Notes: generated by a model not told the origin, from the letters alone. Positions 3,276-24,548 are shown, counted from the stretch's first letter. The stretch is 64,000 nucleotides of DNA from Myxococcota bacterium (GCA_965250285.1 OZ252299.1:448001-512000); one strand, 5' to 3'. Translations and numbers: made by a program.

Positions 3276-6200
3276 TCAGAGCCAGCTGTTGATGATGATG
3301 AACGGTGCCCAGTAGTACGGATGCGTCGAAGATGCGTCCGAGATCGCTGCATGCTGGGCTCGCCGGAGCGCTTCGGCCCGGCTCACTCCGTCCTGGTTCA
3401 GCTCGCGGTAGAACCGCGCGATGAGGTCTGAAGTCGCCTTGTCGTCGACCGACCAGAGCGTGCCCAGAACGCTGCGCGCGCCCGCCCGGACGGCAATGCC
3501 CGAGAGCCCCAGGGCCGCCCGATCATCGCCCGCCGCGGTCTCGCAGGCCGACAAACCGAGCAGCTCGAGCGGCTCTTCTCGGTACTGAAAGCGCCCGATC
3601 AGCAGCTCGAGATCGTCCACCGCAAGACGTCCGTCCGATGTGAGCATGAAGCTCTCTGAGTCGGCGCCCTCGAAGACGGCATGCGTCGCGAAGTGCACGA
3701 TGCCGTAGTCGCCTTCCCGAATCCGGGTTTCGATGCCGGCCGTGCTGAAGGCCTCGTCGAGAAGAACGTCGCCACCGATCTCGTTCGAGATCGCATCGAC
3801 CTCGGCCTGAACGTTCTCGAGGGGGGCAAAGTCGAGTCGACTCTCCGTGAGCCCACCGATGAGTGCCCGCATGGTTCCCGTTGGAATCGCGCGTGGTGCG
3901 GTCATGGCCATTGAGGGAGCCACGCCGACGGACCAGCGCTCGACGAGGAAACGCTCGCCGTCGTGCAGCGCGGCCATGGGGATCGTACGCAGTGCGCCGT
4001 CTGGAACAAAGACGATCGTCTCGATCGAGGGATCGTCGAGGTAGGGCTCGAGCGGACGAACGAGGTCGTCGTAGAGCGATCGGGCAGGTTTGAGATACTG
4101 CCTCGTCGTGCGCTTGGTCAGGAGTCGCCGAAGCTGACGCACGTCGGCTTCGATCTCGGCCTGGGTGACCGGTACGGTCACGCGCTCGAGGTCGCCGTCC
4201 GGGAGCGTCACGAGCAGCTCGAGCCGGTCGGGCAGCACGATTGGGTAGACGATCAGGGCACCATGCGACACGTCATCGACGCTCTGCTCGCTCGCGACGA
4301 GCGCGTCGATGCAGGGGTCATCGAAGTAGTCGCGCAGCTCGGAGGCCTTCGAGGTCTCGATGACGTCGCGGACTCGTCGGTATCGGTGCTGCGAGTCGCT
4401 GCCTACTCCTCTTTGCTCCGACCGAAGGAGCTGATCGACGAGGCCATAGTGAACCGCTGCGATGTCGCGCCGAAAGGCGCGGTTCGGAGGCGGGGCCTCG
4501 AAACGCAGTCCCTCCAGCTGGTCGAGGGAGCGGTTGTAGGCCGCAATCGACTCGGTCGGCCGGTCCATCTGCCCCAGCGCCCGGGCCGACTGCCACTCGG
4601 CGACGTAGATCAGCTCGGGTGCATTGGCCTTTCGTGCGAGTCGCGCCGCCTCGCGCGCAAGCTGCAAGGATTCTTCGGCACGGTCTTCGTCTTCATAGAT
4701 GCGGGCCAGCCCCGACCACGCCGCCGCCGCCGAGCGAGGATCCCCGAGCGCTTCGGCCTCACTCTTGGCGGCCATCAGCTGCACATAGGCCCACTGGCGC
4801 GAGCCCGCGTGGTGCCTGGCGAGCATGCGGGCGGTCTCGGCGAGGTGCAGCCGCGTCTCGGCGAGCTCGGCTGAGGGAGGCGCGTCGGCGATGGCGGTTG
4901 CCGCCTCGTTCCACGATCTCATCGCGCTCGCCGGATCGTCCAGATCGCTCTGGATGCGCGCGGCCAGCGCCAGGGCGCGGGCCGCTGCGATCGGCAGGTC
5001 GGCATCCGATGCAGCGGACGCCGACTGCGCAAGAGCGTCGAGCGCTTCGGGTGTGCGGCCGAGCTGCTGGGCCGCCCATCCGCGCTGCAGGTGCACCCGC
5101 GCCTGGGCCTCGTGGGGCAGGGCGCTCTTCATGGCAAGCGCGTCGAGTTGCTCCAGCTGGCCTTCGGTGGCTCGCTTCTTCGATCGAGCCGCTTCGCGAT
5201 CCGCTTCGGTGAGAATCACGAGCGTAGGGTCATCGAGCGTGGCTGCCCAGGCCGCCGCCGTGTCGCGATGATCCGATGCCACGCGTTGCTGCCCCAGCGC
5301 CTCGCGGATGTCGGTGAGCGCGCGCAGCCACGTCAGGTGCTCGGCCGATGGGCCAACACCCGCGAGGCTGGCATCGAGCAGATCGGCGGCCCGTGCCCGG
5401 TGCCCTGCGCGAAGCGCTGCTTCGACTTCGGGCGGGAGCGCCCCCGGTCGAGCGCCCCCTTGTCGGGTGCCAGCGACCGTCGGCCCGAGCCAGCGATCCG
5501 GGGTCGGCGGCGTTGCGTCGCGGCGACCGACGACGAAGCTCGACTTCGCGTGGGGATCGCGAGCCGCGCACTGCGCCGCGAGCTGGCTCGAAGCGGTGAG
5601 CATCGTCTCGGGCAGAACCTGAACGCGCTCGATCAGATTGGTGTCGGCGGCGCTGATGAAGATGCGACCGTCGATGCCCAGCTCGGTCGAAGCGTCGAGG
5701 ATCGTATCGCTCGAGATCAGCACGCCACTGCCGCGGATGTCGATGTTGCCTCCGAAGCCGGTGATCGCGCCCGCTCGCACCTCAGCGCGGTTGAGGAGCA
5801 CCCGCTCACCCGAGAGCGCGACGTCCCCCCCGCTGCCATCGCCCTGGGTCGTGACGCGGGTTTCGATTCGACCCTGATCGACTTGGAGATCGGCGGTCGT
5901 CGAGATCGAGATCTGCCCACCCGCCGAGCGGGTCGCGTCGGTGACGACGGCCGCATCGGTCAGCCTGAACTCGCTCGACTCGATGTCGATCTTTCCCGAG
6001 TTGCCTGCGCCCGACGCGGCTGCACTCACGCGGGCGCCGCTTTCGATCTCGATCTGACCCGCCGAGCTGAGTTGGATGTCTCCCGACGGCTCGACCGACG
6101 CCCCATCGGTGCTGACGATGCCGCCATTGCGGATCGCGATCAGCCGGGTGCCCGTGAGCTCGATTCCGCCCCCACTCGCATCCGATCCGACCCCGCGGAG

Positions 6201-8534
6201 GTTCGTGTTGATCGAGCCCCCGTCGACGACCAGCGTCTCGGCCGCATTCATCGAGATGTTGCCGGCGTCGCCCGACAGCAGGGATGTGGCCGAGACGAGC
6301 GCGCCGTCCGTGACTCGAACGTCTCGAGCGTCGACGCGGATCTCGCCGGCCGGGCCGACGTTGCCTTCGGCGGTCATGAAGCTGTCGAGGCCGTCGACGG
6401 TGAACGTTTCGTCGACGTCGACGGTGATCGAGCCCGCCGCGCCCGCGCCGTTCGTCGTCACGCCGACGCCGGCGCCATCGAGGACGCTCATGCTTCTCGC
6501 CGAGACGATGATCTCACCCCCGTCGCCGGTCGCGGCCGACGACTCATCCGGGCCCGACTGCGAGAACACGCCCGAAGGGGTGGCGGCAGCCGCGCCTGAG
6601 AGAGTCAGTGTGTCGGCCAAAGCCAGTTCGACGTTGCCGGCGTCGCCCGCGCCGTCGGTCGTCGAGAAGATCTGCGAGCCGCCCGAAGCCGACACACTGC
6701 CGGTTTCGATTCGCACACCCAGCCGTCTTCCGTCGATCACTCGGCCGGCGTTGCCCTGACCGAGCGTCGTCGCAGCGAGGGTCGATGCGCCGTCGAGTCG
6801 GAGGCTGCCCGACGCGCCGCCCGTGACGAAGATCGTGCCCGCGTCGCCGGTTGCCGTGGTGCCCGACTCGGTTCGGATCTCCGCGCCGTCGGTGATCTCG
6901 ATCTGCCCGCCCGTCAGCATGATGTCGCCGCCGCGGCCCGTCCCGTTGGCAACCGAAGAGACGTCCGCGCCCTGGGTGACCGAAATGGATCCGTCAGGAC
7001 CGGCATCGAGTGTGATGCCGCCGATCGGTCCTGTTGACGCGCTAATCGAGTCGGTTCGGACCTGCGAGGCGTTGGAGATCGAAATCGTCGAGCCCGAGAG
7101 AGACACGCTTCCCGATCCACCGACACCCACAGTTGTCGACCCCACGAGCGAGCCATCGGACACGACGATCGCCCCCGCGTCGCCAGTCTCGATCGCAATC
7201 TCGCCGGCGTTACCCGATGCGACCCCCTCGGATGTGGTGAAAACGAGACTCGAATCGCCGATTGCGACCGAATGGGCCTCGATCTGGATCCCGGCTCCCT
7301 CCCCGTCCCCGGTCGCGAATGTCTGCGCCGCGGCCGATTCGATCACGACTTCGTGGGCTTCGAACAGGAGGGGTGCACTGCTGGCGCCCGACGAATGACG
7401 AATGCCCGAGAACAGGCCGTCGGGAAGGGTGTCGCTCACTTCGATTCGACCGCTCGACAGCCGAACGCCTCCGACTGCTTCGTCGCCGTCGCCCAACGAG
7501 CCGATCAAACTGCGGTTTCCCGACATCAGGATCTCGCCGTCGGTCTCCACGTCGACCGCCCAAGGCTCTTGCCCATCGCCCCCGGCCACTAGCTTCGACT
7601 GGTCCAGAGTGAGTCGACCGCCCCGGATCACGATGCGACCCCGGTCCGGGAACTCAGCGGCTCCACCAAAACAGAGGGTTTGATCGACACAGACGATCGA
7701 GTCATCGACGAACTCGATCTCGCCCGCGCCGATCGATGGCGTCCAACTGCTCACGTCGACGGGAACCTGGGCCCCGCCGCTCCCGACCGCCGCAACACGC
7801 ACGGTGCCGGCCCGCGAGACCAGGCCCGCCGCGTCGAACCGCACGTCGCTGGCGATGATGGTGACATCGGCCTCGGCGCCGAAGTCGAAGGGGGTGAACG
7901 ACCCGGGTAGAGAACCGGGGGCGCCCCGAAACTCGACGACGCCCGTCCCGCCCGCGTCGATCAAGAACGATGAAGGGGTGCCGCTGCTCAGCGGTGGGGA
8001 TGGGTCGTCGACGCGAAAGACCGAGGCGCCCGACGCGTCGTCGAACACCAGGCCGTCGGCGGTGGTGAGAAAGACGCTGCCCGATACGTCGACCTGCGCC
8101 CCCTCAGTGAAGAGCACGCCCATGGGGTTCAGCAGGTAGAGGCTCACGCCGGGTGAGGTCGTGAGCGGCCCCGAGATCGTCGAGCCCGTGTTCCCAGCCG
8201 CGGCATCGCCCGTCACTCGCGTGATGATGCGCTGAATCGTCGGGTCGCTGTTGAAGGTCGCGCTCTCGCCGACGTCGACGTCGAAGATGCGAAAGCTGTG
8301 GTAGAGGTTCGCTCCGCTCGCTTCGCCGTCGGCCTGATCGATCGTGAAGTCGCCCGACCGCACCGCCCCGTCGGGGTTGGGGCCAATGCTCCCGTCGAAG
8401 ACAGCCTCGCTCCGGGCCACCTGAGCGACCGCGAGCAGCGCCAGCAGCTCGAAGAGCAGTACGCCGAGCGGACCCATTCGATGGCGGCCAGGATGCGTTG
8501 CGGCCCATCGCGCCCCATACGCAGTGCTCGGCAT
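3276..8534 (-). CDS. Filamentous haemagglutinin (TPS-domain) beta-helix protein fused to TPR repeats and a C-terminal CHAT (caspase-like, clan CD) protease domain
   Basis: Signal peptide, then TPS domain ('NLYHSFRIFDV', 'IITRVTG', 'LYLLNPMGVLF'), Gly-rich beta-helix repeats (GNAGxIxI), TPR-like helices and CHAT motifs 'FVPDGALRTIPMAAL', 'IVHFATH', 'LSACETA', 'HPYYWAPF'. Start ATG 8534 (AGGA overlapping the upstream stop) or ATG 8477. Confidence 0.88.
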   Translation of the reverse strand: MPSTAYGARWAATHPGRHRMGPLGVLLFELLALLAVAQVARSEAVFDGSIGPNPDGAVRSGDFTIDQADGEASGANLYHSFRIFDVDVGESATFNSDPTIQRIITRVTGDAAAGNTGSTISGPLTTSPGVSLYLLNPMGVLFTEGAQVDVSGSVFLTTADGLVFDDASGASVFRVDDPSPPLSSGTPSSFLIDAGGTGVVEFRGAPGSLPGSFTPFDFGAEADVTIIASDVRFDAAGLVSRAGTVRVAAVGSGGAQVPVDVSSWTPSIGAGEIEFVDDSIVCVDQTLCFGGAAEFPDRGRIVIRGGRLTLDQSKLVAGGDGQEPWAVDVETDGEILMSGNRSLIGSLGDGDEAVGGVRLSSGRIEVSDTLPDGLFSGIRHSSGASSAPLLFEAHEVVIESAAAQTFATGDGEGAGIQIEAHSVAIGDSSLVFTTSEGVASGNAGEIAIETGDAGAIVVSDGSLVGSTTVGVGGSGSVSLSGSTISISNASQVRTDSISASTGPIGGITLDAGPDGSISVTQGADVSSVANGTGRGGDIMLTGGQIEITDGAEIRTESGTTATGDAGTIFVTGGASGSLRLDGASTLAATTLGQGNAGRVIDGRRLGVRIETGSVSASGGSQIFSTTDGAGDAGNVELALADTLTLSGAAAATPSGVFSQSGPDESSAATGDGGEIIVSARSMSVLDGAGVGVTTNGAGAAGSITVDVDETFTVDGLDSFMTAEGNVGPAGEIRVDARDVRVTDGALVSATSLLSGDAGNISMNAAETLVVDGGSINTNLRGVGSDASGGGIELTGTRLIAIRNGGIVSTDGASVEPSGDIQLSSAGQIEIESGARVSAAASGAGNSGKIDIESSEFRLTDAAVVTDATRSAGGQISISTTADLQVDQGRIETRVTTQGDGSGGDVALSGERVLLNRAEVRAGAITGFGGNIDIRGSGVLISSDTILDASTELGIDGRIFISAADTNLIERVQVLPETMLTASSQLAAQCAARDPHAKSSFVVGRRDATPPTPDRWLGPTVAGTRQGGARPGALPPEVEAALRAGHRARAADLLDASLAGVGPSAEHLTWLRALTDIREALGQQRVASDHRDTAAAWAATLDDPTLVILTEADREAARSKKRATEGQLEQLDALAMKSALPHEAQARVHLQRGWAAQQLGRTPEALDALAQSASAASDADLPIAAARALALAARIQSDLDDPASAMRSWNEAATAIADAPPSAELAETRLHLAETARMLARHHAGSRQWAYVQLMAAKSEAEALGDPRSAAAAWSGLARIYEDEDRAEESLQLAREAARLARKANAPELIYVAEWQSARALGQMDRPTESIAAYNRSLDQLEGLRFEAPPPNRAFRRDIAAVHYGLVDQLLRSEQRGVGSDSQHRYRRVRDVIETSKASELRDYFDDPCIDALVASEQSVDDVSHGALIVYPIVLPDRLELLVTLPDGDLERVTVPVTQAEIEADVRQLRRLLTKRTTRQYLKPARSLYDDLVRPLEPYLDDPSIETIVFVPDGALRTIPMAALHDGERFLVERWSVGVAPSMAMTAPRAIPTGTMRALIGGLTESRLDFAPLENVQAEVDAISNEIGGDVLLDEAFSTAGIETRIREGDYGIVHFATHAVFEGADSESFMLTSDGRLAVDDLELLIGRFQYREEPLELLGLSACETAAGDDRAALGLSGIAVRAGARSVLGTLWSVDDKATSDLIARFYRELNQDGVSRAEALRRAQHAAISDASSTHPYYWAPFIIINSWL

Positions 8535-8538
8535 CGTC

Positions 8539-11500
8539 CTATTCCGGCACGGCTTTGGCGCAGACTCCGCGGAGCGGTGTGCCGAGGCCGGCAACGGCGC
8601 GTTGCAGCACGGCGATGTCGCGAATGTCGATCTCGGGGCCACCGACGACGCTGCCGAGATCAGCCACCGCAGGGTCGAGATCGATGCCCAGGACGAAGTC
8701 CCAGAGTTTGTCGACATCGTCCTCGACGGGCGGACCGAAGACGGCCCCGGTCTCGTCGGTGTCGCCGCACTGGCACGCATCGCCGATGCCGTCGACGATC
8801 GGAGCGGTCCCGAGCAGGGCGCCGGTATCGGCATTCGTCGGGTCGGGTTCGAAGATGCATCGATCGCCATCGTTCTGAATGCCGTCCCCGTCCTGGTCTG
8901 GTGCCGCGTTGAAGAAGCTGGTCAGCTCGGCACGCTCGAGCGCCGACTGATCGACGGCGGCGAGCAGCGATACGCCCACACCATCGTGGTAGGGCAGCTC
9001 TTCGACTCGACCATCGGTGAGGCTCAGCGTACCCGAAACCGGGCTGCTGAGCGTGATTCGGCCCACGCAGTTGAGCGCGCTGTCGGTGCCGTAGCCCAGG
9101 GTCGTGCCGCCGAGTAGCCACGGCAGATTGCCCTCGAGCACGATGTAGAACACGTCGGGGAGGAGGCCCGCCGCGGTCGCCGAGGCGGGGTCGAGCGGGT
9201 CGACGGTGAACGAGATCGGATCTCCATTCACGTCGAGACCCGTCTGCACGCCCGGCAGGCTCCCCGCACCACAGCTGCGCTGGTCGACCCCACCGCCGTA
9301 GTCTTGCGGGGTCGCATCGCAGCCGCTCAGCGAGATCGTCTCGGCTGAAGTGGCATACCCATCGGGCAGGGCCACGCCGACCGCGATGCGATGGAGCGGC
9401 TCGGCGTAGCTGAAGCACACGTCGTACTCGGTCGCGGCGATCGGGTCCTGCCCGGGCGCGGGGCCGATGCGGATGTCGACCGGCGGCAGGTCTCCGGGCG
9501 GCGGCGGCGGGCAGGCGAGCCCACAGGACTGGCTCGCGATGTAGCTCACGATCGTGATCAGCCCGCCGTCGGTCGGCTCGGGCACCGGGAACACGTCGGC
9601 CACCCCCTGCTGCGTCAGATACGCATCGGGCAAGCTGCCACCGGGGTCCGGGTTCAGCGAGACCTCGCCGAGGTTGATCTCGGCAAGCGGGGGGCACGCG
9701 ACGAGATCGAGATCGAGATAGAGCGTATCGCCGCGTGCGCCCGGGTTGGGGGCGGGGGGGGGCACGACCGTCGCGAGCGAGACGTTGGTGGCGTCTTCGG
9801 TGAAGACGGGCGCACCCGGGTACTCGGGCGGAATCGCGATGCCCGTCTGAATCTCGGTGGGCGGCGAGCTGCCCGGGCAGGTCAGCGTGAGACGGAACGC
9901 GGGATCCGCCGCGTCGCCAATCTGTTCGAGGTTCAGGAACCCGTTCTCGCACACATCGCCGATGCCGTCGCCGTCCTCGTCGAGCTGGTCCGAGTTGCTG
10001 GCGAGCGGACAGTTGTCGCAGACGTCACCCACACCGTCGCTGTCGCCGTCGACCTGGGACGGGTTGTAGAGGAACGCGCAGTTGTCGAGTCCGTCGGGGA
10101 GCCCATCGAAGTCGCTGTCGCGCACCATGCTGCGCGTGGTCAATGCTTCGATGGCGTCGATTCTCGCCGGGAGCCCGCTGTGGTCGTTCCCGGTGAGGCG
10201 CACGAACCGGAAGGCGTCGGTCGCGTCGAAGCCATGACCGTCGCCGTCGACATCGACGGCGGCGGCGCAACCCGTGATCTCCTGCATCGTGCCGCTGAAC
10301 CAGTTCGAGCCGTCGGCGCTGTATTCGACCGAGAACGGCCGCAGGAAGTCGCTGCTGAGACCGTTCGTTCCGACGTACACACAGAAGTCGGGGTCGTTCG
10401 TGCCGCTGCCGCGGATCACGTTGTCGACGAACTGGAGGGTCAGCCTCGAGCCCTGGGGAAGCTCGGCCCAGGGGAACTGCCACGCCACTGCGCCGGCCAG
10501 CTCTTCGGGATCGTCCGTCGGGGCGCCGAGCGCGAAGGTCGGGTCGACGACGGCGCCCTCGACATCGACGACGGCGTCGGCAAAGATCGTCGAGTCGGCG
10601 CCCTGCATGAGCATGATGAAGCCGTTTCCGGAGCCTTGGGGCGGGCTACCACCCGACGGTCCACCCATCGCAGCGCCCACGAAGAGGTCGAGCACGTCGT
10701 CGCCATCGATGTCGCCCAGCGGCGCGACCGCCGAGCCGAGTCCGTTGCTCCGCCAATCGCCGAGATCGATCGGGTTGATGGTGCCGACGGCCGAACCCCG
10801 CGTGTTCTGCACGGTCGACGCACCGCGGATCGATCCGTCGTCGTCGAGCGGCACGAAAATGAGCCCCCCGGTGGCTTCGAAGGGCGGCGGCGCCGGACAG
10901 AGGAACGTCGGCTCGAAGGGTGCGCACGAGGGATTCGGGAACAGCTCACTGCCGATCGCCAGGGTGCCGCGGCTCGTGGCGTCGTCGGCATCGGGCAAGA
11001 ACGCGAGGGACGTGCCAATGCGGGCGTCCGGCGGGATCAGCACGCGGGATACGGGGAAGACGAGGCCCTGATTCGAGCTGATCTTGCGGTACGACGCCAC
11101 GGTCTCGTCGAGCGCCAGCGATACGATGTACACGGCTCCGGCGTTGCTCGCGTTGGTGGCATCGTCGCCGGGCGCGGCGATGGCGATGTCCGCGCCGCCG
11201 TCGCGATCGAGGTCGCCGAGGCTCGTGACCGAGAAGCCCAGCGCGTCGAAGGGCCCGACATCGCCGGGAAAATCCTGTCCGGTCAGCTTGGCGTGGCTCT
11301 TCACGGTGCCGCTGGCGTTCATGTAGAGGATCCAGACGGCTCCCTGGTCGGGGCCACCGTCGTCGTCCCCCGACGCCCCGACCAGAAGGTCGGGTACGTC
11401 GTCGCCATCGAGGTCGCCGGGCGTGGCGAGCGCGCCGCCGAAGCGATCCCCTACGTCGAGTGATCCCGCGAAGCTGCCGTCGGAGTCGTTGATGCGTTGG

Positions 11501-14500
11501 AAGCTTCGAACCGTTCGGTCGGGCTCCATGAAGAGAACGTATACGGCGCCCTTGCCCGCCACGTCGCGGGGGGCCCCCACGATCAGGTCGGAGAGACCGT
11601 CGCCGTCTAGATCGCCGGGCGATGCGACCGCGGTGCCGAAGCGATCGGTGGTCGAGAGCAGGCCGCCGGGATCGAACGCACCGGTCAGTCCACCCGACGA
11701 ATCCGAGATCTCGACGTCGAGCGCGCTCACGATCTGCCCGAACCCGTTCGGCGAGACGATGAAGACCGCGCCTCGGCCGTCGCGTGCGCCCGGTGCTCCG
11801 ACGGCGACCTCGACCAGGCCATCGCCGTTGAGGTCATCGAGTGCGACGGCACTTCGGCCGAAGCCGGCGTCGGCCTCGAGCGTAAGCGAGACGAACGTAC
11901 CGGACACTTGATTGACCTGCTTCGGTCGAGGGATCGGCACGCCCTCGGAGAGGGCCGACTGCAGGCCCGGGAACTGCGCCGCGACGCGAATCGCAGGGTC
12001 GTCGTCGACGTCGATCGAGAACGACTCCGCGGTGACGGTGATGACGTTGACGTTGGCACTGGCCGTGATGTCGCGCGCCTGAAGCTCGGGGTTGGCATTG
12101 ATCGCGGCGGCGATCTGCGCCGTCACGTCGAATGTCGAGTCGCCCGTCGACGTGTCGAGTTCGATGGTGACGTCGTCGACGATGATCTCGATGCGGCCGC
12201 CCACTGCATTGCCACCGAGCAAGACGATGGTCTGCTCCGGCTGCAGCGAGAAGCGTGCGGCCGTGACGCCGGGCTCGTTCGCCGCGTCGACGGCGAGCCG
12301 ACCGCCGACGACGAGGCGTCCGCCCGGACGTGCGTCCGCCCAGACACCGCGCGTCTGCAGGGTCGGATCCGCGAGGATCGCGTCGGCTGCGTCGCGCGCG
12401 AGCTGATCGGCGCCGAATCCGTTTCGTGCGAGCACGCTCACCGTGACGCCGTCGACGCGAACGTCGACGGAGCCGCCGGCCGGATAGCCCAGGAAGAGGG
12501 CTGATTCTTCGCCGCGGCAGGCGCTCGAGCAGCCGTCGCCATCGAGGAGATTGCCGTCGTCGCATGTTTCGGTGGGGTCGAGTGCGCCATCGCCGCAAAG
12601 CGCCTCACGGCCATCGACACTCATCACATAGACGGCGCCTGCATTCGTCTGGCCGTCATCATCCGCGAACGCGCCCACCACGATCTCGCGCCGCCCGTCT
12701 CCATCGAGATCGCCGATCGACGCAGGCCATCGGCCGAGCGAGTCGCCGTCGAGGAGGCTCGCATCGAAGCCGCCAAGCCCTTCCGTGATGCGCTCACTGC
12801 GCATGACGCGGCCAAGTTCATCGAGGAAGAGGAGCCAGAACGCGCCCCGGTTCGTGCCCGCGGTGTCGTCGTTGTACGCGCCCGCGATCAGGTCGGTCAC
12901 GCCATTGCCGTCGAGATCGCCGAGTCGGTCGAGGCCCAGCCCGAAGAACGTCGAGGATGTGAGCACGTCGGGGAAGCCGCCGAGACCGCTGCCGATTCGG
13001 AATTCATCGACGACCTGCTTCGTCTCGGGGTCGACCGAGAGCATCCAGATCGAACCCAGGTTCGAGCCCGCTGGCGCCGCGCCGTCGTCGTTGCGAGCGG
13101 CGACGGCGAGCTCGACCAGGCCATCGTGTCCGATGTCGCCCAGGTAGGCGATTGCATCGCCGAAGTGATCGGTCGTCGTGAGCGAGCCGCCGAAGCCCCC
13201 CTCGGTCGCGCTGTACTTGACGAGCGATTCGACCGAGCCCACTTCGGGGTGCCCGGGGCCGTGCAGCGAGAGCATGTAGACCGCGCCCGCTTCGGTGGCG
13301 CCGTCGGCATCGCCGTAGGCCCCGACGGCGATCTCGAGCCCGCCGTCCCGGTCGAGGTCGCCGACGGCTTCGATGCTCTCGCCGAATCGGTCGGAGACGT
13401 CGAGGGTGAGCCCTGCAGCCGCGATCGCTTCGCTCAGGCCGCCCTCATCGGCGTTGATCAAGACATGGTCTCGGACGCTGAGGTCGCCGGGGCCGCTCGA
13501 CTGCAGGAAGAGCACCCAGACCGCGCCCGTGCGCGTATTGGTGCCGCTCTCGCCGTCGTCGCCCACGGCGCCGACACCGAGGTCGACGATGCCGTCGCCG
13601 TCGACGTCGCCCAGGGCGGCGACCGCGCCGCCAAACGCGTCACCGATCTCGATGGGGCCGGTGAAGCCGCTCTCGACGCTCGGCAGAAGAAGCTGGCGAA
13701 CGATCTCGCCGTCGGTGGCGAGAGACAGGATCCGGAGCTGGCCCGAGCCACTGCCGCCAGCTGCGGGCAGACCCACTGCGACCTCGGTCGTACCGTCGCC
13801 GTCGATATCGCCCAGCCCGGCGGTGCTGCGTCCGAAGGATGCGAAGGCGGTGAGCAGCCCGCCGGGATCCCCCGGGCCCGACAGACCGCCCGAGGTGTCG
13901 CTGATCTTGCGGATGTCGGTCACTGTGCCGAGTTCGAGCCCCAGCAAGCCTGAATCGGTGGTCGAGCTCGAAGTGACGCTCACTCCGCTCAACACCAGCG
14001 TCTCGCCACTGGCGAAGGCCGTGAGCCGCTTCGTGCCGAGCACAGGATCGGATGCGATGGCCGATGCCAGCGCCGATGCGACGTCGGGGCCGGTGTCGCC
14101 CGGGCTGGTCACGATGCTGATCGGTTCGCCGAGGAGCGCGATGTTCACCGTACCGCCGGTCGCAAGGCCTGAGATCGCGAGATGGGTCTCGGGCTCACAG
14201 ATCGATGAACAGCCATCGCCTTCGACGTTCCCGCCGTCGTCGCAGGCTTCCACCGGGTCGATCCGTCCGTCGCCGCAGACGGCAGTGCCGCCGTCGAGCT
14301 CGATCAGATACACGGCGCCCGTGTTCGAGCCCGTCCCATCGTCGTCATAGAAGGCGCCCACGGCCAGCAGCGGGCCGCCCAGGCCGTCGAGTGAGGGGAG
14401 CGCGGTCAGCCCGTAGCCGAATCGATCGTCGGGATCGATCTCGCCCGCGAGCTCGGGGTTCTGCGGGCCGAGCTTGACGACCGAGGTCACCGGGTTCGCG

Positions 14501-17500
14501 GTCGACGCCGGGTTCAGGAACAGCACGTACGCTGCGCCGGCCTGACCGCCCCCGTCGTCGTCTCGGTTCGCGCCCGCGGCAATCTCGTTGTCTCCATCGC
14601 CGTCGAGGTCGGGCAGGAGCGTCAAGCCTGCGCAGAGGCGGTCGTCCGACTCGACGAATCCGAGCGGGAACCCGCCCTGGCCGGGCCGGATCGTCTCGAA
14701 GTACTTCGCGGCCGTGCCGTCGGGGTTCAGGCTGATGATCTTGATCGATCCGGTGTTGCTGAAGCCCGGTGGCTCGTCCGTGTACGCACAGCTCGCGATC
14801 TCGATGCGGCCATCCCCGTCGATGTCGCCCAGGGGCTCGACCACCGTTCCGAACTGATCTCCGCCATTCACGAACTGGGCGACGACGCGCTGCGGTGCGA
14901 GATCGAGCCTCGCGCGGCCCGTGCGATCGAGGAAGACCACCCAGACGGCTCCGCCGTCTGTGGGGTAGAAGTCGTCGAAGGGGGCACCGACGACGAGATC
15001 GCCGACTCCGTCGCCATCGATGTCGCCGGCCGCACCGACGTCGTGCCCAAAGAAGTCGCCGGCGCCGAGCGTGTTGGCCGGAATGCCGCCCTCGCCGTCG
15101 GCCAGCTTCATCGCCGACAGCACGGTGGATGAGTCCGCCGCCATGAAGAGGATGTAGACGGCGCCTTCGGCATCGCCGCTCGCGCCTACGGCGATGGCGT
15201 AGGCGGAGGGGCCCGGCCCATCGAGATCACCGAGATACGCGACGCCGAGCCCGAGGAAGTGACCCGCGCCGAGGCTGTATCCGCTCGCAGCGAACACGGC
15301 CCCGAGGTTGCCACTGGTCGCAGACAGCTTCGTTTCGCTCTTCACGGTTCCATCCGCGTTCATCAAGACGATGAAGATCGCGCCCGCGTCTGTGAAGCCG
15401 TCGTCGGTGGTGTACGCGCCGACGATCATGTCGGGGACACCGTCGCGGTCGAGGTCGGCGCCGTCGATCGAGACGCCGAGACGATCGTCGCTCGCGAGGA
15501 GGCCGCCCGGATTGCCCGGCCCGGAGAGTTCGCCCCGCGTGTCGCTCAGCTTCACGACGCTGCGGATCATTCCGACATCGAGACCGATGAGGCCGGGATC
15601 CGTCGTTCCATTCGATTCGAGTACGGCTCCGCCGACGACCAGCCGGTTGCCGTCGGCCAAGGCCTCGACGCCGCGAACGCCCAGCGTGCCGTCCGCGACG
15701 ATGGCCGCGGCCAGCCGCGCGGCGACGTCGTCGGGCGTATCGCCCGCGAAGGTCGACACCGAGATGTCGACGCCATCCACCAGCAGGCTGGCCGAACCGC
15801 CTGTCGGCGCGCCGTCGACAACCAGCCACTCCTCTTGTTGGCAGGTGGCTGAGCAGCGATCGCCCGACATCGTGTTGCCGTCGTCACACGCCTCGGCCGC
15901 ATCGAGAATCCCGTTGCCACAGGCGGGCCCGAGACCATCGATGTCGAGAAGCCACACGGCGCCGGATTCGTTCTGGCCCCCGTCGTCGGCGCGCGGCGCG
16001 CCCACCGCGAGCTCGGGCCACCCGTCGCCGTCGAGGTCCCCGACGCTTGCGACCGATGCGCCGAAGCCGTCGCCATCGGCGAGTGGCCCAGCGAAACGAC
16101 CGAAGAGCGTGCTGATGATGTTGCGCTCGCGGTTCGAGTCGGCGATCTCGATCGGGTCCGTCCCGCCGAAGGGCGTGAAGTTGTCTCGGCCGAGCGAATG
16201 AATGAGAAGCGCGCCGCGGCTCGTCCCACCTTGATCCTCGAAGGGGCCCCCGTCGGCCAGCTCCGGAACGCCGTCGCCATCGAGGTCGCCGAGCGAAGCC
16301 AACGCGTGCGCGTAGCCTCGGACGCTCGATCTCTCGACGCAGAGCCCCGTCGAGTCGAGCTCGAGGATCGCGATCAATCCGGGCAGCTCGCCGGTCGACA
16401 CGCCCGGCAGCGCTCCGGTCGAACCGACGGCGAGAAGGTTCCGACTGCCGCCATCGGGGTCGCCGATCACAGCAAGGCTCTCGCCGAAGCGCGTCCGCCT
16501 GAACGTCTGCGGGTAACAGTTGTTGGGATCATTCGCGTTGTTCGTCAGATTGCTGAGCTTGGATTCGCGCTCGACGTTGCCCGTCTGCGAGAGCGAGACG
16601 ATCCACAGTGCGCCGCGGTCGGGGCCGGTTTGCGGCGCACCCGCATCGTCGTCGTCGTCGCCGGGAGCGCCGATGGCCAGCTCGGGCCGATCATCGCCAT
16701 CGAGGTCGCCCAGGAAGGCGACGCTGCGGCCGAACTCATCGCCGACGTCGAGGTTGCCGCCGAACCCCGCGAGTCCTTCGCCGATCACCGCCGAGCCGGC
16801 AACCGTGCCGTCGGGGGCGAGGAAGTAGATCCAGACGCTGCCACCGAGGCCGGGGCCGTCGAACGGCGCGCCGACCGCGAGATCGGGGACGCCATCGCGA
16901 TTCAGATCGCCGATGCCGGTCAGCGATGCGCCCAGCGTCCCGTGATCGAAGGGCGCGGGGAAGCCGGGTGCACCCGTGACGAGCTCGATCTCGCTGCGAA
17001 CCGAGCCATCGGCGTTCATGAAGAGGACGAAGAGTCCGCCGTTGTTCGGCTGTCCGTCGTTGGCCTGACTCTGGCCGACCGCGAGGTCGTCCACGCCGTC
17101 GCCGTCGACGTCGCCGATCAGCGCAACGGCTGAGCCGAACTCGTGCGTCGCGTCGATGATGCCGCCTAATCCACCTGCGTTGCTGATCTTGCGCTCTTCG
17201 AGAACCCGCCCGAAAGCGGAGAGCGCCGTGACGCCCGGGTCCGTGCTGGCTGCGTCGGTCAAGGCGCCGCCGCTGACGTAGAGACGCTCTCGAAAGTGGG
17301 TGGCCCGAACGCCGCGCGAGGCCAATGTGATGTCTGCGTGCACCGCGTCGACGAGCGCCGCCGCGATCGACTCGCCGCTCTCGTCGAGGAGGGGCGCGAT
17401 CGAGATCACCTGGCCCGCGATGTCGAGCTGAACCAGGCCGCTTCCGGTGCCGATGCCGAGCAAGTCGACCGTCGCCTCCGTCTGACAGAACGCTGAGCAC

Positions 17501-20500
17501 CCGTCCCGATCGTCGGCGTCCCCGAAATCGCAGGTTTCGCCGGCATCGAGGATCGCGTTGCCGCACTCGGCGAAGCCGCTCGACAGGAACGCCGTCCAGA
17601 CGCTGCCGCGATCGTCGTCCCCGTCGAGTGGAGCACCGGCGACCAGCTCTGGAGCCCCGTCTCCGTCGAGGTCGGGCGAGATGGCGAGCCCGGCGCCAAG
17701 CCACTCCGAGCCGAGCGCGAGACGTCCGTTGGCTGCGTCGAAGAGCGGGAGCGGTGTCAGGCTCACGACGGGGTAGGTGATCACGAGCGTGTTGTTCACG
17801 ATCTCGACGTTCACGTCCGATTCGAGTACCCAGACCTGCCCAGTGCCCGAGCCGTTCGTCGAATCGGTCCGAGCGCCGACCGCGAGGTCGACGCGCCCGT
17901 TGCCGGTGAAGTCTCCAAGCGGCGTGATCGACGAGCCGAAGCCCGCTCCACTCGGGCTGGACAGGTCGAAGGTGATGTCGGTCGGGTCCTCTCGCCCCCC
18001 GTCCGCCTTCAGGAACATCACCTCGACTTGATTCGAGCCAGGCCGTCCCAGGGCGAGGTCAACCGTCGACTCATTGCTCCGGTTGAAGTCGCCCACGTTG
18101 GCGAGGGACTCGATCCCCCCGTCTTCGATGTGCTCGACGTACTCTCGAATCGAGCCGTCCCGATCGAGGAAGAGGATGTGGATCGCAGTGCTGACAGTGC
18201 CCGACAGACCGACGGCGAGATCGGGTACGCCATCCCCGTCGATGTCACCCAGGCCGGCTGCCGACGATCCGAAGCCAAAGAAGGGTGGGACGACCGCTGT
18301 GAATCGACCCAGGCCCGGGCCGATGGGCGTCGCGTCTCGCACCGTGCCGTCGGCGTTGAGAAACAGGATATGAACGCGGCCGTCCTGGTCCACGATGGTC
18401 GAGTGATCTGGCGAGCCCACTGCGACGTCGGGGATGCCGTCGCCGTCGACGTCGCCGACGGCCACGACGGAGGTGCCGAAGCGGCTCGCGGCGTCGAGGT
18501 CGGCGAGCGCCGGCTCGATCGAGGCGACGATCTTGTGCGAAGAGATGGGCGAGCCATCTGGCCCGCGGCGCACGACCCAGATGGCTCCGTCGTCAGCGCC
18601 GTCCTGGGGCGCACCGATCGCGACATCCGTCGTCCCGTTCGCATCGAGGTCGCCGAGATCGGCGACTGAGCCGCCGAAGAGATCTCCGTTGGCCGAGACG
18701 CCGAGATCGAGATTCTCGAGCTCGAGCAATAGGGGGATCGAAGCGTCGCCGCTCGGCCGGGCGAGGATCAAGCCAGGATCGGTGTCTGCGAAGTCGGTGA
18801 GGATGCCACCCACGACGAGTGTGCCGCCGAGGTTGGCGGCGGAAACACCCTTGGCGGAGAGGGTCGGATCGGCCGAGATGGCAGCCGCGAGCGCAGCTGC
18901 GATCTGGTCGCCCGAGTCTCCGGCCGTGGTCGGAATGCTGATCTGCACCCCCTCGACGACGACGTCGACGACGCCTCCGCCGAGGGCCTGGCCGAACACG
19001 TCCAGTTGCTGCTCGAGCCGGCAGGTCGAGCTGCATCCATCGAGCGCTGCGGGGTTGCCATCATCGCAGGCTTCGATCGGCTCCAGCACGCCATTGCCAC
19101 ACGCCCCATCCGCGCCCGCGACCTCGACGATCCACAGCGCACCGCGATCGACGTCCAGACCATCATCGCCGGGTGCGCCGATGGCCAAAGAAGGGAGCGT
19201 GTCACCGTCGAGGTCGCCCAAACCGGCGAGTGCACGGCCGAAATGATCGAAATCGGCGAGGCTGCCTACGAAGCCACCGTTCGCTTCGGTGATCTTGCGC
19301 GTCTCGGTCGCCTGTCCGTCGGCTGAGAGCGAGATCAGATAGACGGCTCCGGCTTCCGCCCCCGCCTCACTGTCGCGCTCGGCCCCGACCGCGAGCTCGA
19401 GTTGCCCGTCTCCGTCGATGTCGCCGAGTCGACCGAGTCCCGAGCCGAACCCGCCCTCGTTCGAGACCACTCCATTGAAGCCACCCTGGCCGGCGCCGAT
19501 GCGCTGTTCAGCGGACACGTTTCCCGAGCTGTCGAGAAACAGGATCCACACCGTCCCCGATGCCGATGCGAACTGTCGCCCCGGGCCCCCGATGGCAACG
19601 TCGTTCACGCCGTCGCCATTGAGATCGCCGACGCCGACGACGGACGAGCCGAACGCGGTGTCGCCCGGAATGACCTGAGGCAGCGCGAACCCGCCGATGT
19701 CGACGCTCGTGCGCACCATGCCGCTCGGCTCGAGGAAGAGCAGCCACGCACCGCCCGAGAGAAAGCCCGTCGTCGACGAGCTGGGCGCACCCACGACCAG
19801 CTCGGGTACACCGTCGCCGTCGATGTCGCCCGGCGAGCCGACAGCGGCCCCGAACTCGACGCCGGGGCTGAGCAGCCCCGTGAACCCGCCCTCGCCACCG
19901 CCGCGGGCGCTGATCTCGAGATGATCGAGGACGCTCCCGTCGGCGGCGAGATAGACCAGCCAGACGGCGCCTTCTTCGTTGAAGCCGTCCGCAGTCGCGG
20001 GCGCGCCAACCGCGATGTCGGGGACGCCGTTGCCGTCGAGATCGCCCATCCCCGCGACGCCGGCTCCGAATCGGCGGATGTCGACGCCGGTGGCGAAGCC
20101 GCCGATTCCTTCGGCGATCGACGTCTCAGAGGCGACGGTGCCGTCCGCGTTCATGAACAGGATGCGGACGAGCCCGCGATCGACTCCCGCGTCGTCGTCG
20201 AGCGGGCTGCCCACGGCGAGATCGTCGACGCCGTCGCCATCCACGTCTCCGATCCATGCGACCGACGATGCAAAAGCTTCGCCCGCCTCGAGGACGGCAC
20301 CCAACCCGCCGGCGTTGTCGGCGATTCGAACCTCGTCCACCACATCACCGAGCGCGAACACGATCTCGGCGCCCGAGTCGCTGCTTTCGGGCGCGAGGAT
20401 GACTCCATCGGTATAGAGGCGGTCCCCGAACGTCGTTGCTGCGACGCCTTGGTTCTGGAGAGTCGGATCGTTGTTGATCGCACTCGCGAGGGCGGATGCA

Positions 20501-22692
20501 ATCGCACTGGGCCCCGCTCCAAGACCGGGCGTGATCGCGATGAGGACAGCGTCGACCGTGACCTCGATCAGACCATCGCCCGCACCTTGCCCGAGGAGCA
20601 GCGCTGATGTCTGATCTCGACACGACGCGCTGCAGGCGTCGCCTTCGAAGAGCCCCCCGTCGTCACACTCTTCGCTCGGGTCGAGTACCCCATCGCCGCA
20701 GACCTCAACCGAGCCAATGAGCGACGCCGTATAGGCCGCGCCTGCGTTTGCACCGTTCGCATCGAACGCTGGATCCGTCCATGCGAGCTCGCTCACCCCG
20801 TCGCCATCGAGATCGCCGAGTGCTGCGAGGCCCAATCCACGATCGCCACTGCCCGGTGTATCGAACACCTCGGTCGCGATGACGGTGCCGCCGGGCCCGG
20901 TGGACACGAGCATGAAGCCGTCCCGGGGTGCGAGCGAGCCCACGAAGTCGGAGAACCCATTGCCGTCGAGATCGCCGATCGACGCCAGAGAAGCGCCGAA
21001 TGCGTCGTTGGAAAGGAGCGGGATGCCGGGACCGGAGCAGGTGGGGCCGGTGCAATCGGTGCTGTACTTATAGGCAGCGTTGACGCCACCGCCCGTGTCG
21101 AGGAGCACGATGTACGATGCACCGCGGCTGGTGTCGGTCGGCGCACCGATCATCAGATCGGGTGTGCCATCGCCGTCGTAATCGCCGAGCTCGGCGGGTC
21201 GTGAGAAGCCGTCGTCGACCCCGGGTGTTTGACTGAATCCGAGGGTGAGAAACGCGGGCTCCGTGCCGTCGATGACGGTTGAAGAGCGGACCGTGCCGTC
21301 GCGACGCATGAAGAGGATGTGCACGACGCTGGGGTTCAGGAAGCCCAAGACCCCGTCGGCTCCCTGGCCCACCGCGATTTCGGTGACGCCGTCGCCGTCG
21401 ACGTCTCCGACGCGCGCGATCGCCTTGCCGAATCGGTCGTTCATTCCGAACGCTGCGGCGGGCAGGCCGCCCGAGCCGTTGGCGATCTTGATGTGCTCGC
21501 GGACCGTTCCGTTCGCATTCATGAAGAGGATGTAGACCGCGCCTGAATCGGAGAAGTCCGTATCGTCGCTGGGCGCACCGACGGCGAGATCGACCACGCC
21601 ATCTCCGTCGAGATCGCCGATGCCCGCCACTGCGCGGCCAAACTCGTCGTCATCGTCGAGTACGCTCGCGAGCCCGCCGATCCCGTTCGAGATCTTCGTC
21701 GTCGCGAGTACTTCGCCGACCGCATCCAGGTTGATGACGTAGATCGCGCCGCGATCGTTCTGGCCAGGAGCCGGGTCGTCGCCGGCCGCACCGATCACCA
21801 CATCGTCGAAGCCGTCACCGTCGAGGTCGCCGATCCCCGTCGCATCCGAGCCGAACTCGTCGCCGGCATCGAGGGGATTGCCGAAGTTGGCGACGTTGTT
21901 GATGATCTCGAACTCGGCACCGACGAAGACAGCGTCGGCAGGCTGTGAAAGTGCGAGGGCGCCGATGAAGACGAGGAGTCCGTTTGCAACTCTTGATCGG
22001 TGATGGCAGCGCGAAGAGCGGCGCACACGTGCGATGACCAAGAGCCCGAGCAGACCCGCTGTGAGCAGCGTGCCGAGCGTCGGTTCGGGTACCGCGACCG
22101 CGGGCTGGCTGCTCACCAGGACGGTTGGTTCTAGGCGGGCATCGACGCCGAGACTGTCACCGGCGATCACCCACAGCGCCCCGTCGGTGCCGGTGACATC
22201 GACCTGGAGCTCGCCGAGGTAGAGACTGCCCGGCGCCGGCGCGAAGTCGCCGCCGTCCAGGACATTGATTCGTGCGATCCGAATCGAGGTCGCACTCTCG
22301 CGATGTGAGCGCGTTTCGCCCGTAAGCTGGGTGTTGGGGACGAACTGCACGATCGAGAGGCCGCCGGTCGCCTCGATCCGCAGCTGAAAGCCGCAGACTT
22401 CATCTCCCAGCGCATCTTCGCAGACGATCTGATTTCCCGTCGTGAAAGTCGCTTCTGGACCGGTGTGCATTCGGAGCTGAAGTGGAACGAGGCCGGCCTC
22501 TGAAGACACGGTCGTCGGTGCGCCGGTATATGCGGCCCCGCCCAGATTGAGGTAGACGGTTGGGGGCGCGCCGGCCGACGCGTCGCCTTGGAGGAGCATG
22601 AGCCCCGTGAGCACCAGGAGCCCGAGCGATCGGAGCGGCCGACTCAGAGCGGTGCATCGGCACGATCTGAGGCTCGGTCGGCGATGGCCCAC
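8539..22692 (-). CDS. Giant (4717 aa) surface protein: FG-GAP/integrin-alpha propeller modules, Myxococcus Cys-rich repeats, TSP3 repeats, dockerin-like C-terminus, internal PEP-CTERM-like motif
   Basis: Uninterrupted ORF with dozens of '[20 protein letters not shown]' repeats, six 'CG(D/N)x…E.CD.G…D.CS..C' repeats, 'DGDGIGDVC'-type TSP3 repeats and an N-terminal signal peptide. Confidence 0.92.
12517..20700 (-). repeat. Six 27-aa Myxococcus cysteine-rich repeats at ~1.5-1.7 kb period marking tandem modules of the giant protein
   Basis: Repeats at 20620-20700, 19021-19101, 17485-17565, 15841-15921, 14197-14277 and 12517-12597; spacings 1599, 1536, 1644, 1644 and 1680 nt. Confidence 0.9.
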
Positions 22693-22739: not shown

Positions 22740-24548
22740 ATGTCAGGCATCGCGGCCCGCAGCGCGACACCGCTCACTGTACCCGGATTGGCGCCCCACT
22801 TGTCTGAACTTGTCGTGATCAGTCTCTGCCGCTGGGCGCTCTCGTGCACACGACGGTGTGGGGTGGCGTCCGGGCTGGTGGCGACTCTCATGAGTTGCGC
22901 ATTTGCAAGCGGCGCCGACGCCCAGCCCCTGCCCAATCCGCGGGTTCTGCCGGGCAATGAGCAGCCCCCGGAACTCGAGCCCGCGCCCACGCCTCGGGCC
23001 CCTTCGCTGTTACCCCCGGCTCCATCTCCCGAGGGGGGCGCTGATCCGTTCTCCGATGTCCAGATTTTCGTCTGGGTCGATGCCATCGAGATTCGAGGGA
23101 ACACGGTTCTGCCGCCGCGCGTGCTCGTGCAAGAGACCCGGCCCTTCGTGGGAAGACGGGTTTCGAACGCCGATCTGCTCGATCTCCAGCGTCGGCTGAC
23201 ACGGCTCTATGTCTCGGCCGGCTATGTCACGTCGTTCGTGCGGATCCCAGATCAGGATCTCGGTGAAGGTGTCATTCGATTCGACGTCGTCGAGGGAAGG
23301 CTCGCCGAGACCCGAATCACCGGCCTGAAGACGCTCGCAGCTCGGTATGTCCAGGTGCGACTGGTCCCCGATCCCGATGCTCCGCTCGATGTTGCGAGCC
23401 TCGAGCGGAGGCTCGATGCGTTGCAGCTCGATCCCCGGATCGATTCGGTCCAGGCGCGGATCTCGGCCACGGCTCATCCAGGGTTTTCAGCACTCGAAGT
23501 TCACGTCGTCGAGTCTGATCGTTGGCGAGCGCAGCTCGTCGTGGCCAATGACCGCCCGCCCGCGATCGGCCAGACGAACGGGCGGATCGGCTTGGGCTAC
23601 TCGAACGTGAGCGGCTATGGCGACGACACTGTGGCCACGGGCGTGTTCAGCCAGGGGTTGAACGAGATCGCGGTGACGACCACGGTGCCGGTCAATCGAT
23701 TCGATACGTCGGTCGGCGCGCAAGGGCGATTCGTCGACAGCGAGATCGTGACATCGGTCTTCGCCGATGACGACATCGCGGCGCGCTTCTGGAGCGTCAG
23801 CTTGCTGTTGAAACAACCGATCGTCCAGACGACGAAACTGCAGTGGGATGTCGGGCTCGTCGGGGAGCTGCGGCAGACCACGAGTACGCTGGGCGGCGAG
23901 CCCTTCAACACGAGCCAGGCTTCGGTCGATGGCCGGCTGCGCGTTTCGGTGCTTCGATTCACGACAGACCTCGTCTATCGCGATCTCAGTCAAGTATTGG
24001 CTGTGCGCACCGTCCTCAGCGTGGGGCTACCGATTCTCGGCGCGTCCACGTCGGCGAACGGTGTCGACGATACGCGGTTCACGAGCTGGCTCGGTCAGAT
24101 GCAATGGGCTCGTCGGTTGCCATGGTGGCACGTGGAGGTGCTCTCGCGCTTCGATTGGCAGTTGGCTTGGGATCCGCTGCCGCCGATCGAGCGGTTCGCT
24201 GTCGGAGGCGTGCGCTCGGTGCGGGGCTACACCGAGAACCGCCTCGTTCGCGACAACGGCTTCAGCGCCACGTTCGAGACTCGGCTACCGGTGATTCGAA
24301 GCCCCGAGTTTGGGTCGAAGCTCTCGTTGGCGGCCTTCGTCGATGGCGGGCGGTCGTGGTCGCGGGATCGCGGGCCGACGGTTGGGCCGCAGAATCTCGC
24401 GGGCGCAGGTCTGGGGCTGCTCGCGTCTCCGACTTCATGGTTCGACGCGCGCTTGTACTGGGGCGCTCAGCTGATCTCAGTCGAGCAGAATCAGGCGGGG
24501 CTGCAGGGGCAGGGCGTGTACTTCTCGCTCACCATGCGGCGGGAGTGA
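22740..24548 (+). CDS. ShlB/FhaC/HecB family two-partner secretion outer-membrane translocator (TpsB, POTRA + Omp85 barrel)
   Basis: POTRA 'IEIRGNTVLP', 'LYVSAGYVTS', 'VVEGRL'; barrel loop motif 'GGVRSVRGY'; C-terminal 'GVYFSLT'. Start uncertain (could be ~22800-22889). Confidence 0.9.
   Translation: MSGIAARSATPLTVPGLAPHLSELVVISLCRWALSCTRRCGVASGLVATLMSCAFASGADAQPLPNPRVLPGNEQPPELEPAPTPRAPSLLPPAPSPEGGADPFSDVQIFVWVDAIEIRGNTVLPPRVLVQETRPFVGRRVSNADLLDLQRRLTRLYVSAGYVTSFVRIPDQDLGEGVIRFDVVEGRLAETRITGLKTLAARYVQVRLVPDPDAPLDVASLERRLDALQLDPRIDSVQARISATAHPGFSALEVHVVESDRWRAQLVVANDRPPAIGQTNGRIGLGYSNVSGYGDDTVATGVFSQGLNEIAVTTTVPVNRFDTSVGAQGRFVDSEIVTSVFADDDIAARFWSVSLLLKQPIVQTTKLQWDVGLVGELRQTTSTLGGEPFNTSQASVDGRLRVSVLRFTTDLVYRDLSQVLAVRTVLSVGLPILGASTSANGVDDTRFTSWLGQMQWARRLPWWHVEVLSRFDWQLAWDPLPPIERFAVGGVRSVRGYTENRLVRDNGFSATFETRLPVIRSPEFGSKLSLAAFVDGGRSWSRDRGPTVGPQNLAGAGLGLLASPTSWFDARLYWGAQLISVEQNQAGLQGQGVYFSLTMRRE

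Follow-up and report, generated by a model that had tools for sequence, protein, structure and literature searches.

How can a sorting tag that normally closes a protein stand in the middle of a chain and run directly into a second signal peptide, and how many proteins does such a chain make? This question is raised by a giant gene in a window of 64,000 nucleotides (the whole stretch analysed here) from a Myxococcota bacterium (GCA_965250285.1 OZ252299.1:448001-512000), whose genome of 6.25 Mb forms one contig with a GC content of 68.6%. The prevailing view is that bacteria coordinate proteins by operons and that PEP-CTERM is a terminal tag, whose internal copies are dismissed as probably dead; the available part of Haft et al. 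(2006, PMC1569441) places the tag near the C-terminus almost without exception and regards long-tailed copies as possibly non-functional. In the window gene, a signal peptide, a cohesin-fold unit, the tag, a loop, a second signal, a passenger and a dockerin-like end follow each other in a single open frame (Table 1), and this order is kept across a family of homologues. The original prediction, made from this DNA, had read the gene as a polyprotein giving two exported products, and our analysis supports it: the junction recurs in 5 further ORFs of the genome and in 46 of 78 homologues, and both an exosortase and signal peptidase I are encoded. We consider it very probable that two exported proteins are cut from the chain. 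These two products resemble a cohesin anchor and a dockerin-tagged cargo, an identity absent from the original prediction, and it is probable, with rather less confidence, that the cut yields a cohesin anchor and a giant dockerin-ended passenger that re-docks onto it.

Table 1. Features of the giant gene and of its two neighbours, in window coordinates
Feature	Position	Strand	Remarks
Giant ORF	22692-8539	-	GTG start, TAG stop, 4717 aa, zero internal stops
N-terminal Sec-type signal peptide, aa 1-40, ending A-S-A	22573..22692	-	By eye from sequence
Unit 1, predicted cohesin-fold beta-sandwich, aa 41-200, two invariant Cys	22093..22572	-	Model and fold searches
Internal PEP-CTERM-like tag (VPEP, hydrophobic helix, Arg cluster), aa 201-228	22009..22092	-	Sequence, TIGR02595
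Basic loop plus second signal-like segment (aa 229-254), closing with A-D-A	21931..22008	-	Sequence and signal rule
Unit 2, 4463-aa passenger without hydrophobic anchor	8539..21930	-	Pfam, TIGR02232, hydropathy
C-terminal dockerin-like domain, Cys-rich variant, aa 4633-4717	8542..8796	-	Family profile
TPS secretion domain, TPR and CHAT gene	3276..8534	-	Pfam; probable ATG 4 bases past the giant gene's stop
ShlB/FhaC-type (TpsB) outer-membrane transporter gene, divergent	22740..24548	+	POTRA_2, ShlB

The predicted frame and coordinates proved exact: the ORF is open, VPEP (aa 201-204) occupies bases 22092-22081, the A-x-A site ends at aa 254 and a GTG lies in frame at 22026 within the loop of this copy. 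GTG 22692 is the sole in-frame start codon preceding the h-region of the first signal. The hydrophobic helix of the tag spans about aa 203-221, six Arg fall within aa 222-234, and another hydrophobic stretch, at aa 238-248, leads to Q-P-A-D-A|V, with A254 at base 21931. In the whole 4717-aa protein, the helix and the second-signal stretch are the sole 19-residue hydrophobic runs above a threshold that the first signal peptide itself failed to reach.

The tag had been called a textbook PEP-CTERM. This holds for the order of its elements, PEP motif, transmembrane helix and basic cluster (aa 201-228), but not for its score, since TIGR02595 gave the 60-aa junction 13.6 bits, below the cut-off of 16. 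All 10 families listed for this segment are PEP-CTERM/exosortase-target models, and the identical tag type terminates stand-alone homologues of unit 1. In the same genome, two further junction ORFs have tags above the TIGR02595 cut-off (30.9 and 25.8 bits). PF07589 was absent from the Pfam results on the full-length window protein, and a profile built from 52 terminal tails of the same genome did not list the window tag at 6 bits or more. As far as the available sources describe them, PEP-CTERM/exosortase substrates (TIGR02595, PF07589) share with the window protein the signal peptide, the PEP motif, the helix and the basic cluster, whereas the window tag sits mid-chain, with about 4,490 residues still to follow, and leads into a second signal. 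In the genome as a whole, the profile built from 52 terminal tails retrieved 78 tags; 72 lie no more than 60 aa from a stop, and reversed ORFs gave none.

The second signal was assessed with a heuristic rule of our own (basic loop or n-region, uncharged h-region, small-x-Ala), which the window ORF satisfies. So do 32 of the 35 PEP-CTERM-like sites found inside proteins of the retrieved loci, part of which came from a query containing the junction; of the three failures, one is a false motif and the other two are long linkers. Read beyond their stop, 4 of the 72 terminal PEP-CTERM genes of the genome satisfied the same rule, which places the second signal above chance. The Ala at the predicted -1 column is invariant in the 23-row junction alignment. 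An exosortase had been expected in the genome, and six PF09721 matches above cut-off were indeed found, two of five candidates scanned also passing TIGR02602; one exosortase gene (locus L001) displays the Cys, Arg and His motifs described in the portion of PMC1569441 at hand. The genome also encodes signal peptidase I and a T2SS secretin (GspD). For another of its genes, the closest homologues in named records mostly carry the labels Myxococcota or Deltaproteobacteria.

General Sec behaviour and the positive-inside rule suggest how such a chain could be exported, halted, re-initiated and cut by signal peptidase I. The first signal peptide would route the cohesin via Sec, and the tag helix would halt transfer, its cytoplasmic Arg cluster doubling as the n-region of the second signal. 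The second signal would then resume export, and signal peptidase I would cleave after A254. By analogy with the archaeosortase acting on HVO_0405, exosortase would cut the PEP motif and anchor the cohesin, as proposed for terminal tags. The passenger, left anchorless, would be retained at the cell envelope, either in the periplasm or on the outer surface, through dockerin-cohesin binding, a docking step to which the pairing of the two domains points. The alternative that survives best, itself unlikely, keeps the release of the passenger by signal peptidase I and its docking, and has exosortase leave the tag uncut, so that the cohesin would stand on a two-helix hairpin stub in the inner membrane. 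The position of the tag under the TIGR02595 cut-off speaks for it, and exosortase cleavage of an internal PEP-CTERM is without a test in the accessible parts of PMC12188702 and PMC1569441; however, P-E-P is invariant in 23/23 aligned junctions (rows selected by that motif), and the part of PMC7157517 available shows a related archaeosortase cleaving mid-chain.

The identity of unit 1 comes from structure prediction, and the guess of a cohesin was recorded before that prediction was made. The AlphaFold2 model has a pLDDT of 86.6 and its best Foldseek matches are cohesins (E 1e-5, TM 0.58-0.63). In the VIA search the best match was 6kgc_A (Z 13.0, rmsd 2.7, 129 aligned); rows 1-17 (Z 13.0-10.0) all carry cohesin titles except two titled only as cellulosomal or clostridial modules, and the first unrelated fold appears at Z 9.4. 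Identity to true cohesins is 6-15%. Unit 1 had no Pfam match at E 1, and neither did its profile among PDB sequences at E 1. We conclude that unit 1 has a predicted cohesin fold.

Unit 2 is built of FG-GAP repeat blocks (PF01839, 29 stretches) alternating with six Cys-rich repeats (TIGR02232; DUF4215 in Pfam), followed first by TSP3-like repeats and then by two unnamed domains, with the dockerin-like end closing the chain. From these repeats, adhesion is our guess for its role. A hydropathy scan of the passenger detected no hydrophobic anchor. The two unnamed domains gave hhalign probabilities of 1.9 and 0.4 against the cohesin domain, and one of them is without homologues. A 21-member family profile covering the last 85 aa hits type I dockerins (best E 4.7e-7) and aligns across both repeats of solved dockerins. 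On its own, the window domain had no Pfam match, PF00404 included, its second calcium loop is degenerate and its model is of low confidence (pLDDT 62.8). This low-confidence dockerin-like end and the score of the window tag below the TIGR02595 cut-off count against our main reading, as do the remark of Haft et al. on long-tailed copies, the cohesin genes for which the fetched DNA showed no dockerin, the four cohesin matches without PEP and the in-frame GTG in the loop of this copy.

We also looked at how the two domains are distributed in the family, where the cohesin profile matches 40 of 68 genomes. Selection by the cohesin domain alone gave 77 loci after duplicate removal, with 78 cohesin matches. 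The original prediction had proposed a comparison of fused and split genes in relatives, and both states were found: 46 matches run into the junction and 23 into a terminal tag, while 2 carry an internal tag failing our rule, 3 are cut off and 4 are without PEP. Among the 46 junction cases, 36 carry the dockerin within the ORF itself and 5 have it in a neighbouring gene; 2 had none in the fetched DNA and in 3 the ORF runs off the contig. A dockerin gene stands beside 16 of the 23 stand-alone cohesin genes, and for the other 7 none was found within the fetched DNA. The 48 matches from loci outside our alignments behaved in the same way, with 27 junctions (21 with a same-ORF dockerin) and 14 terminal tags (10 with a dockerin neighbour). 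All these counts overstate independence, as the genomes of the family are kin. In the source genome, this dockerin type occurs in three ORFs, the same three that have the cohesin. In addition, none of the 36 complete cohesin-junction-dockerin ORFs ends in a PEP-CTERM tail of its own, and the same holds for all 21 ORFs that have a dockerin but no cohesin; in contrast, 126 of 150 general junction proteins (the best 150 of 2293) end in a terminal tag. At four loci (L038, L040, L051, L180) the junction ORF ends before the dockerin, which is carried by the following gene; this gene overlaps the junction ORF and encodes a separate signal peptide, giving three-part versions of the system.

Complex prediction of cohesin with dockerin scored 0.56 against 0.00 for the best control, with run agreement of at least 94% and partner pLDDT of at least 54; for comparison, 18 of 157 solved pairs scored 0.60 or below, and so did the only two mismatches, out of 215, that passed. 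As cohesin-dockerin complexes have already been solved, this pass may reflect likeness to them, and the prediction weakly favours binding. A second alternative, also unlikely, accepts two exported products and denies that they bind each other: the fusion would merely couple their expression, and cohesin and dockerin would be old folds serving other partners. The low identity of unit 1 to true cohesins, the degenerate dockerin and the weak complex score are all compatible with this, as is the finding that outside the family most junction proteins join units that each retain a tail. It leaves aside, however, the tight co-occurrence of both domains, fused and split, and the lack of a tail in the dockerin-bearing passengers.

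A third, quite unlikely possibility is that both inner sites stay uncut, so that the two helices would lodge permanently in the inner membrane as a hairpin and each domain would lie outside it. Against this, the A-x-A is conserved at the predicted cleavage position of the stand-alone homologues, and a covalently anchored passenger would make the dockerin redundant. The original prediction had also offered internal initiation at GTG 22026, by which the passenger would come mainly from a second ordinary gene whose upstream neighbour is stopless. In its favour, such a start would yield a complete 32-aa signal peptide, 15 of the 46 junction loops of the family contain a start-type codon, and the 26 linker codons have a third-position GC of 0.54 versus 0.75-0.83 in the flanks. 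The proposal is weakened by the other 31 of 46 loops, which are without ATG, GTG or TTG. Anti-Shine-Dalgarno pairing at 22026, computed with the 16S end, is -2.7 kcal/mol, a value equalled or bettered by 58% of 161 internal start-type codons, in a test that is weak because the true start itself reaches only -3.0. Ribosomes from upstream would moreover still read through. We consider internal initiation a very remote prospect.

The junction recurs elsewhere in the same genome. A motif scan detected five more ORFs with the tag, a basic loop, a second signal-like segment and a long continuation. One is a unit fused to a DUF4465 part that carries a terminal tag as well; of the other four, two are unit-1 paralogues, one is a beta-helix protein and one an Rhs protein. 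Their passengers differ. In P0009, which is 55% identical to the window copy, the layout recurs with a different linker, and linker sequences are unrelated among the recurring junctions. The Rhs case (L010:2876-9247 (+), G000 C1:1404376-1410747) consists of a short YD-repeat unit, an internal PEP-CTERM and a second signal continuing into a transglutaminase-like and Rhs-repeat protein. In another locus (L011:2377-4083 (+), G000 C1:960376-962082), two tandem paralogous PEP-CTERM genes share a single frame; its long linker retains a Met ahead of the second signal, so that it looks like a young fusion.

The DUF4465 pair allowed fused and separate states to be compared directly. Sorted by reading of the output, 52 loci in named records comprise 9 fused via the junction (to which the copy of our genome is added), 12 with separate neighbours, 6 directly joined without a junction and 25 with a single unit. 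In all 10 fused copies the A-x-A ends 4-6 residues ahead of the conserved Phe of unit 2, and stand-alone DUF4465 genes have an A-x-A at a like place in 5 of the 9 that could be placed, out of 11. As the fused A-x-A sits where stand-alone genes end their signal peptide, the inner segment is, judging from sequence, the former signal peptide of the second gene, which has kept its character while its sequence drifts. The copy of our genome (L006:2508-4524 (+), G000 C1:2850507-2852523) is a two-unit polyprotein with a tag per unit; a cobalamin riboswitch lies upstream and the next gene is TonB-dependent receptor-like by eye.

A wider search with the 23-junction profile against 1.84 billion representatives gave 2293 matches at E 0.001 and 48 at 1e-10. 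Among the best 150 of the 2293, at least one internal tag is present in 144 and at least two in 59, the signal rule is satisfied at 229 of 245 internal sites, and 126 also have a terminal tag; having been chosen via the junction profile, these 150 give proportions and not rates. The 2500-aa protein P0011 combines nine internal junctions with one terminal tag and shows ten PF07589 stretches, and together with P0012, P0013, P0028 and P0010 it illustrates chains of 3 to 10 units whose PEP-CTERM ends are joined through signal peptides. Atlas look-alikes were Pseudomonadota for P0012, and none lay above 0.9 for P0016. In a phylum survey that scored only 43 candidates per genome, the profile at E 1e-8 matched 7 of 151 genomes of the bacterium's own phylum, all of its own family and mostly training sequences, and 1 of 151 in the phylum of a Neorhodopirellula genome, with a match containing a stop; this survey says little about breadth. 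Taken as a whole, we lean slightly towards the reading that signal peptidase I and exosortase split the window precursor into a lipid-anchored cohesin and a dockerin-tipped passenger that re-dock 1:1. This would be a self-assembling surface display in diderm bacteria and one branch of a wider, so far unrecognised class of secretory polyproteins which use PEP-CTERM plus signal peptide as a modular cassette for cutting and renewed export and may hold up to ten proteins per frame.

How did the arrangement arise? A tree of the cohesin domains was built from 69 rows, 47 fused and 22 alone (short, cut-off and tagless rows, L039 and L205 being excluded). It needs 8 state changes, 4 of them forced by starred branches, versus a shuffled mean of 18.9; fusion or fission was thus repeated, in a direction that the tree cannot tell. 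The window copy belongs to a starred group of six fused rows, within eight rows that are all fused. Adjacent genes for anchor and cargo were likely fused in frame, on more than one occasion, to give the arrangement. In the genome, a terminal PEP-CTERM gene (G000 C1:5177423-5178649 (+)) sits a single stop from the in-frame signal peptide of the next gene, an arrangement that is the step preceding fusion. This gene makes accidental fusions possible, and a recent stop-codon loss had been named as an alternative for the window; an assembly error or a very recent strain-level loss is nonetheless practically negligible here, because the junction recurs in the five other ORFs and 46/78 homologues with unrelated linkers, P0009 repeats the layout around another linker, the fused state is shared over long branches up to the all-fused neighbours in the tree, and contigs are identical at the junction. 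These contigs, rather than reads, come from 3/3 public runs (X1 record 7, X2 record 9, X3 record 15), all of one study and X2 possibly the source of the assembly itself; they cover the junction with 0 differing letters and 0 gaps.

Each part of the layout has relatives among known systems. Bradyrhizobium FbcH (cytochrome b-c1) is a polyprotein split at an internal signal peptide, and flavivirus and bunyavirus polyproteins contain anchor-then-signal junctions, with a stop-transfer helix, a cytoplasmic loop and a signal peptidase cut; unlike the window protein, they are without a sortase-type tag and without cohesin-dockerin re-docking of their products. Internal sorting tags are known as single oddities, according to the portions available of the papers on HVO_0405 and MXAN_5598. 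In Haloferax volcanii HVO_0405, an internal PGF-CTERM is cleaved by ArtA; it resembles the window in having a fusion-derived mid-chain tag and an enzyme of the exosortase/archaeosortase family, but its fusion is strain-specific, with no second export signal mentioned in that part of the source, whereas the window layout is family-wide (PMC7157517). In Myxococcus xanthus MXAN_5598, an internal MYXO-CTERM, called atypical and with processing proposed, lies between two envelope modules and a two-gene fusion has been proposed; the tag and enzyme are different, and the available text describes neither a second signal peptide nor a cohesin-dockerin pair (PMC11980579). Ruminococcus flavefaciens ScaE, a single-cohesin anchoring scaffoldin with LPXTG, likewise retains a dockerin-bearing protein at the cell through one cohesin and a C-terminal sorting tag; from the part of PMC12484212 covered, it differs in being a Gram-positive sortase system of separate genes for plant-wall enzymes, while the window system has a diderm exosortase tag, one precursor and Cys-rich divergent modules.

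A database precedent is NCBIfam NF033207, the 'midcut-by-XrtH protein', which we know by its name line and which is named for an internal exosortase tag. One member above cut-off (L115:1486-2031 (-)) has an IPTL tag and a helix, followed by a basic loop and by another hydrophobic, signal-like stretch that closes with A-Q-A, and this tag-loop-signal layout matches the window ORF. It differs in belonging to the IPTL/XrtH system and in its size, with a first unit of about 14 residues in a 181-aa protein; NF033207 had no match on the window protein, whose tag is VPEP and not IPTL-type. In the open-access literature, a search for 'midcut' gave no relevant paper, and the available part of 10.1101/2023.06.07.544157 held nothing on internal, fusion or polyprotein. 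The layout is undescribed in that literature, which was the scope of the search (mostly, subscription papers, NCBIfam comments and supplements such as Table S1 of PMC11980579 fall outside it). We regard the layout as real, conserved and unexplained in the literature searched, made of known parts and with a database precedent for internal exosortase tags.

If the polyprotein reading is true, many giant surface proteins annotated as 'single' would be misread, and a mid-chain restart of Sec would be a routine design. The cohesin-dockerin part, if true, would add a way for diderm cells to retain secreted proteins of very large size and to deliver them together with their anchor. In the literature covered, the cleavage site and product of exosortase are still mostly inferred; since the cut and uncut forms of the window protein would differ hugely in size, the shift gives a direct assay, as a large size shift also made HVO_0405 useful for archaeosortase.

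We also looked at the genes around the locus. A TPS-domain gene was found in 16 of the 77 family loci, mostly directly after the cohesin-junction-dockerin ORF, and 2 of the 3 TPS/TpsB pairs of the genome flank such ORFs. Type V (TPS) export of the passenger, suggested by the flanking TpsB and TPS genes, was set aside because Pfam detected no TPS domain anywhere in the polyprotein. Elsewhere in the genome, a tiny secreted protein (G000 C1:5181814-5182263 (-)) consists of little beyond a canonical dockerin (PF00404) and adjoins a PEP-CTERM protein that is cohesin-like by eye (C1:5181095-5181973 (-)); the two are perhaps a second, unfused socket-plug pair.
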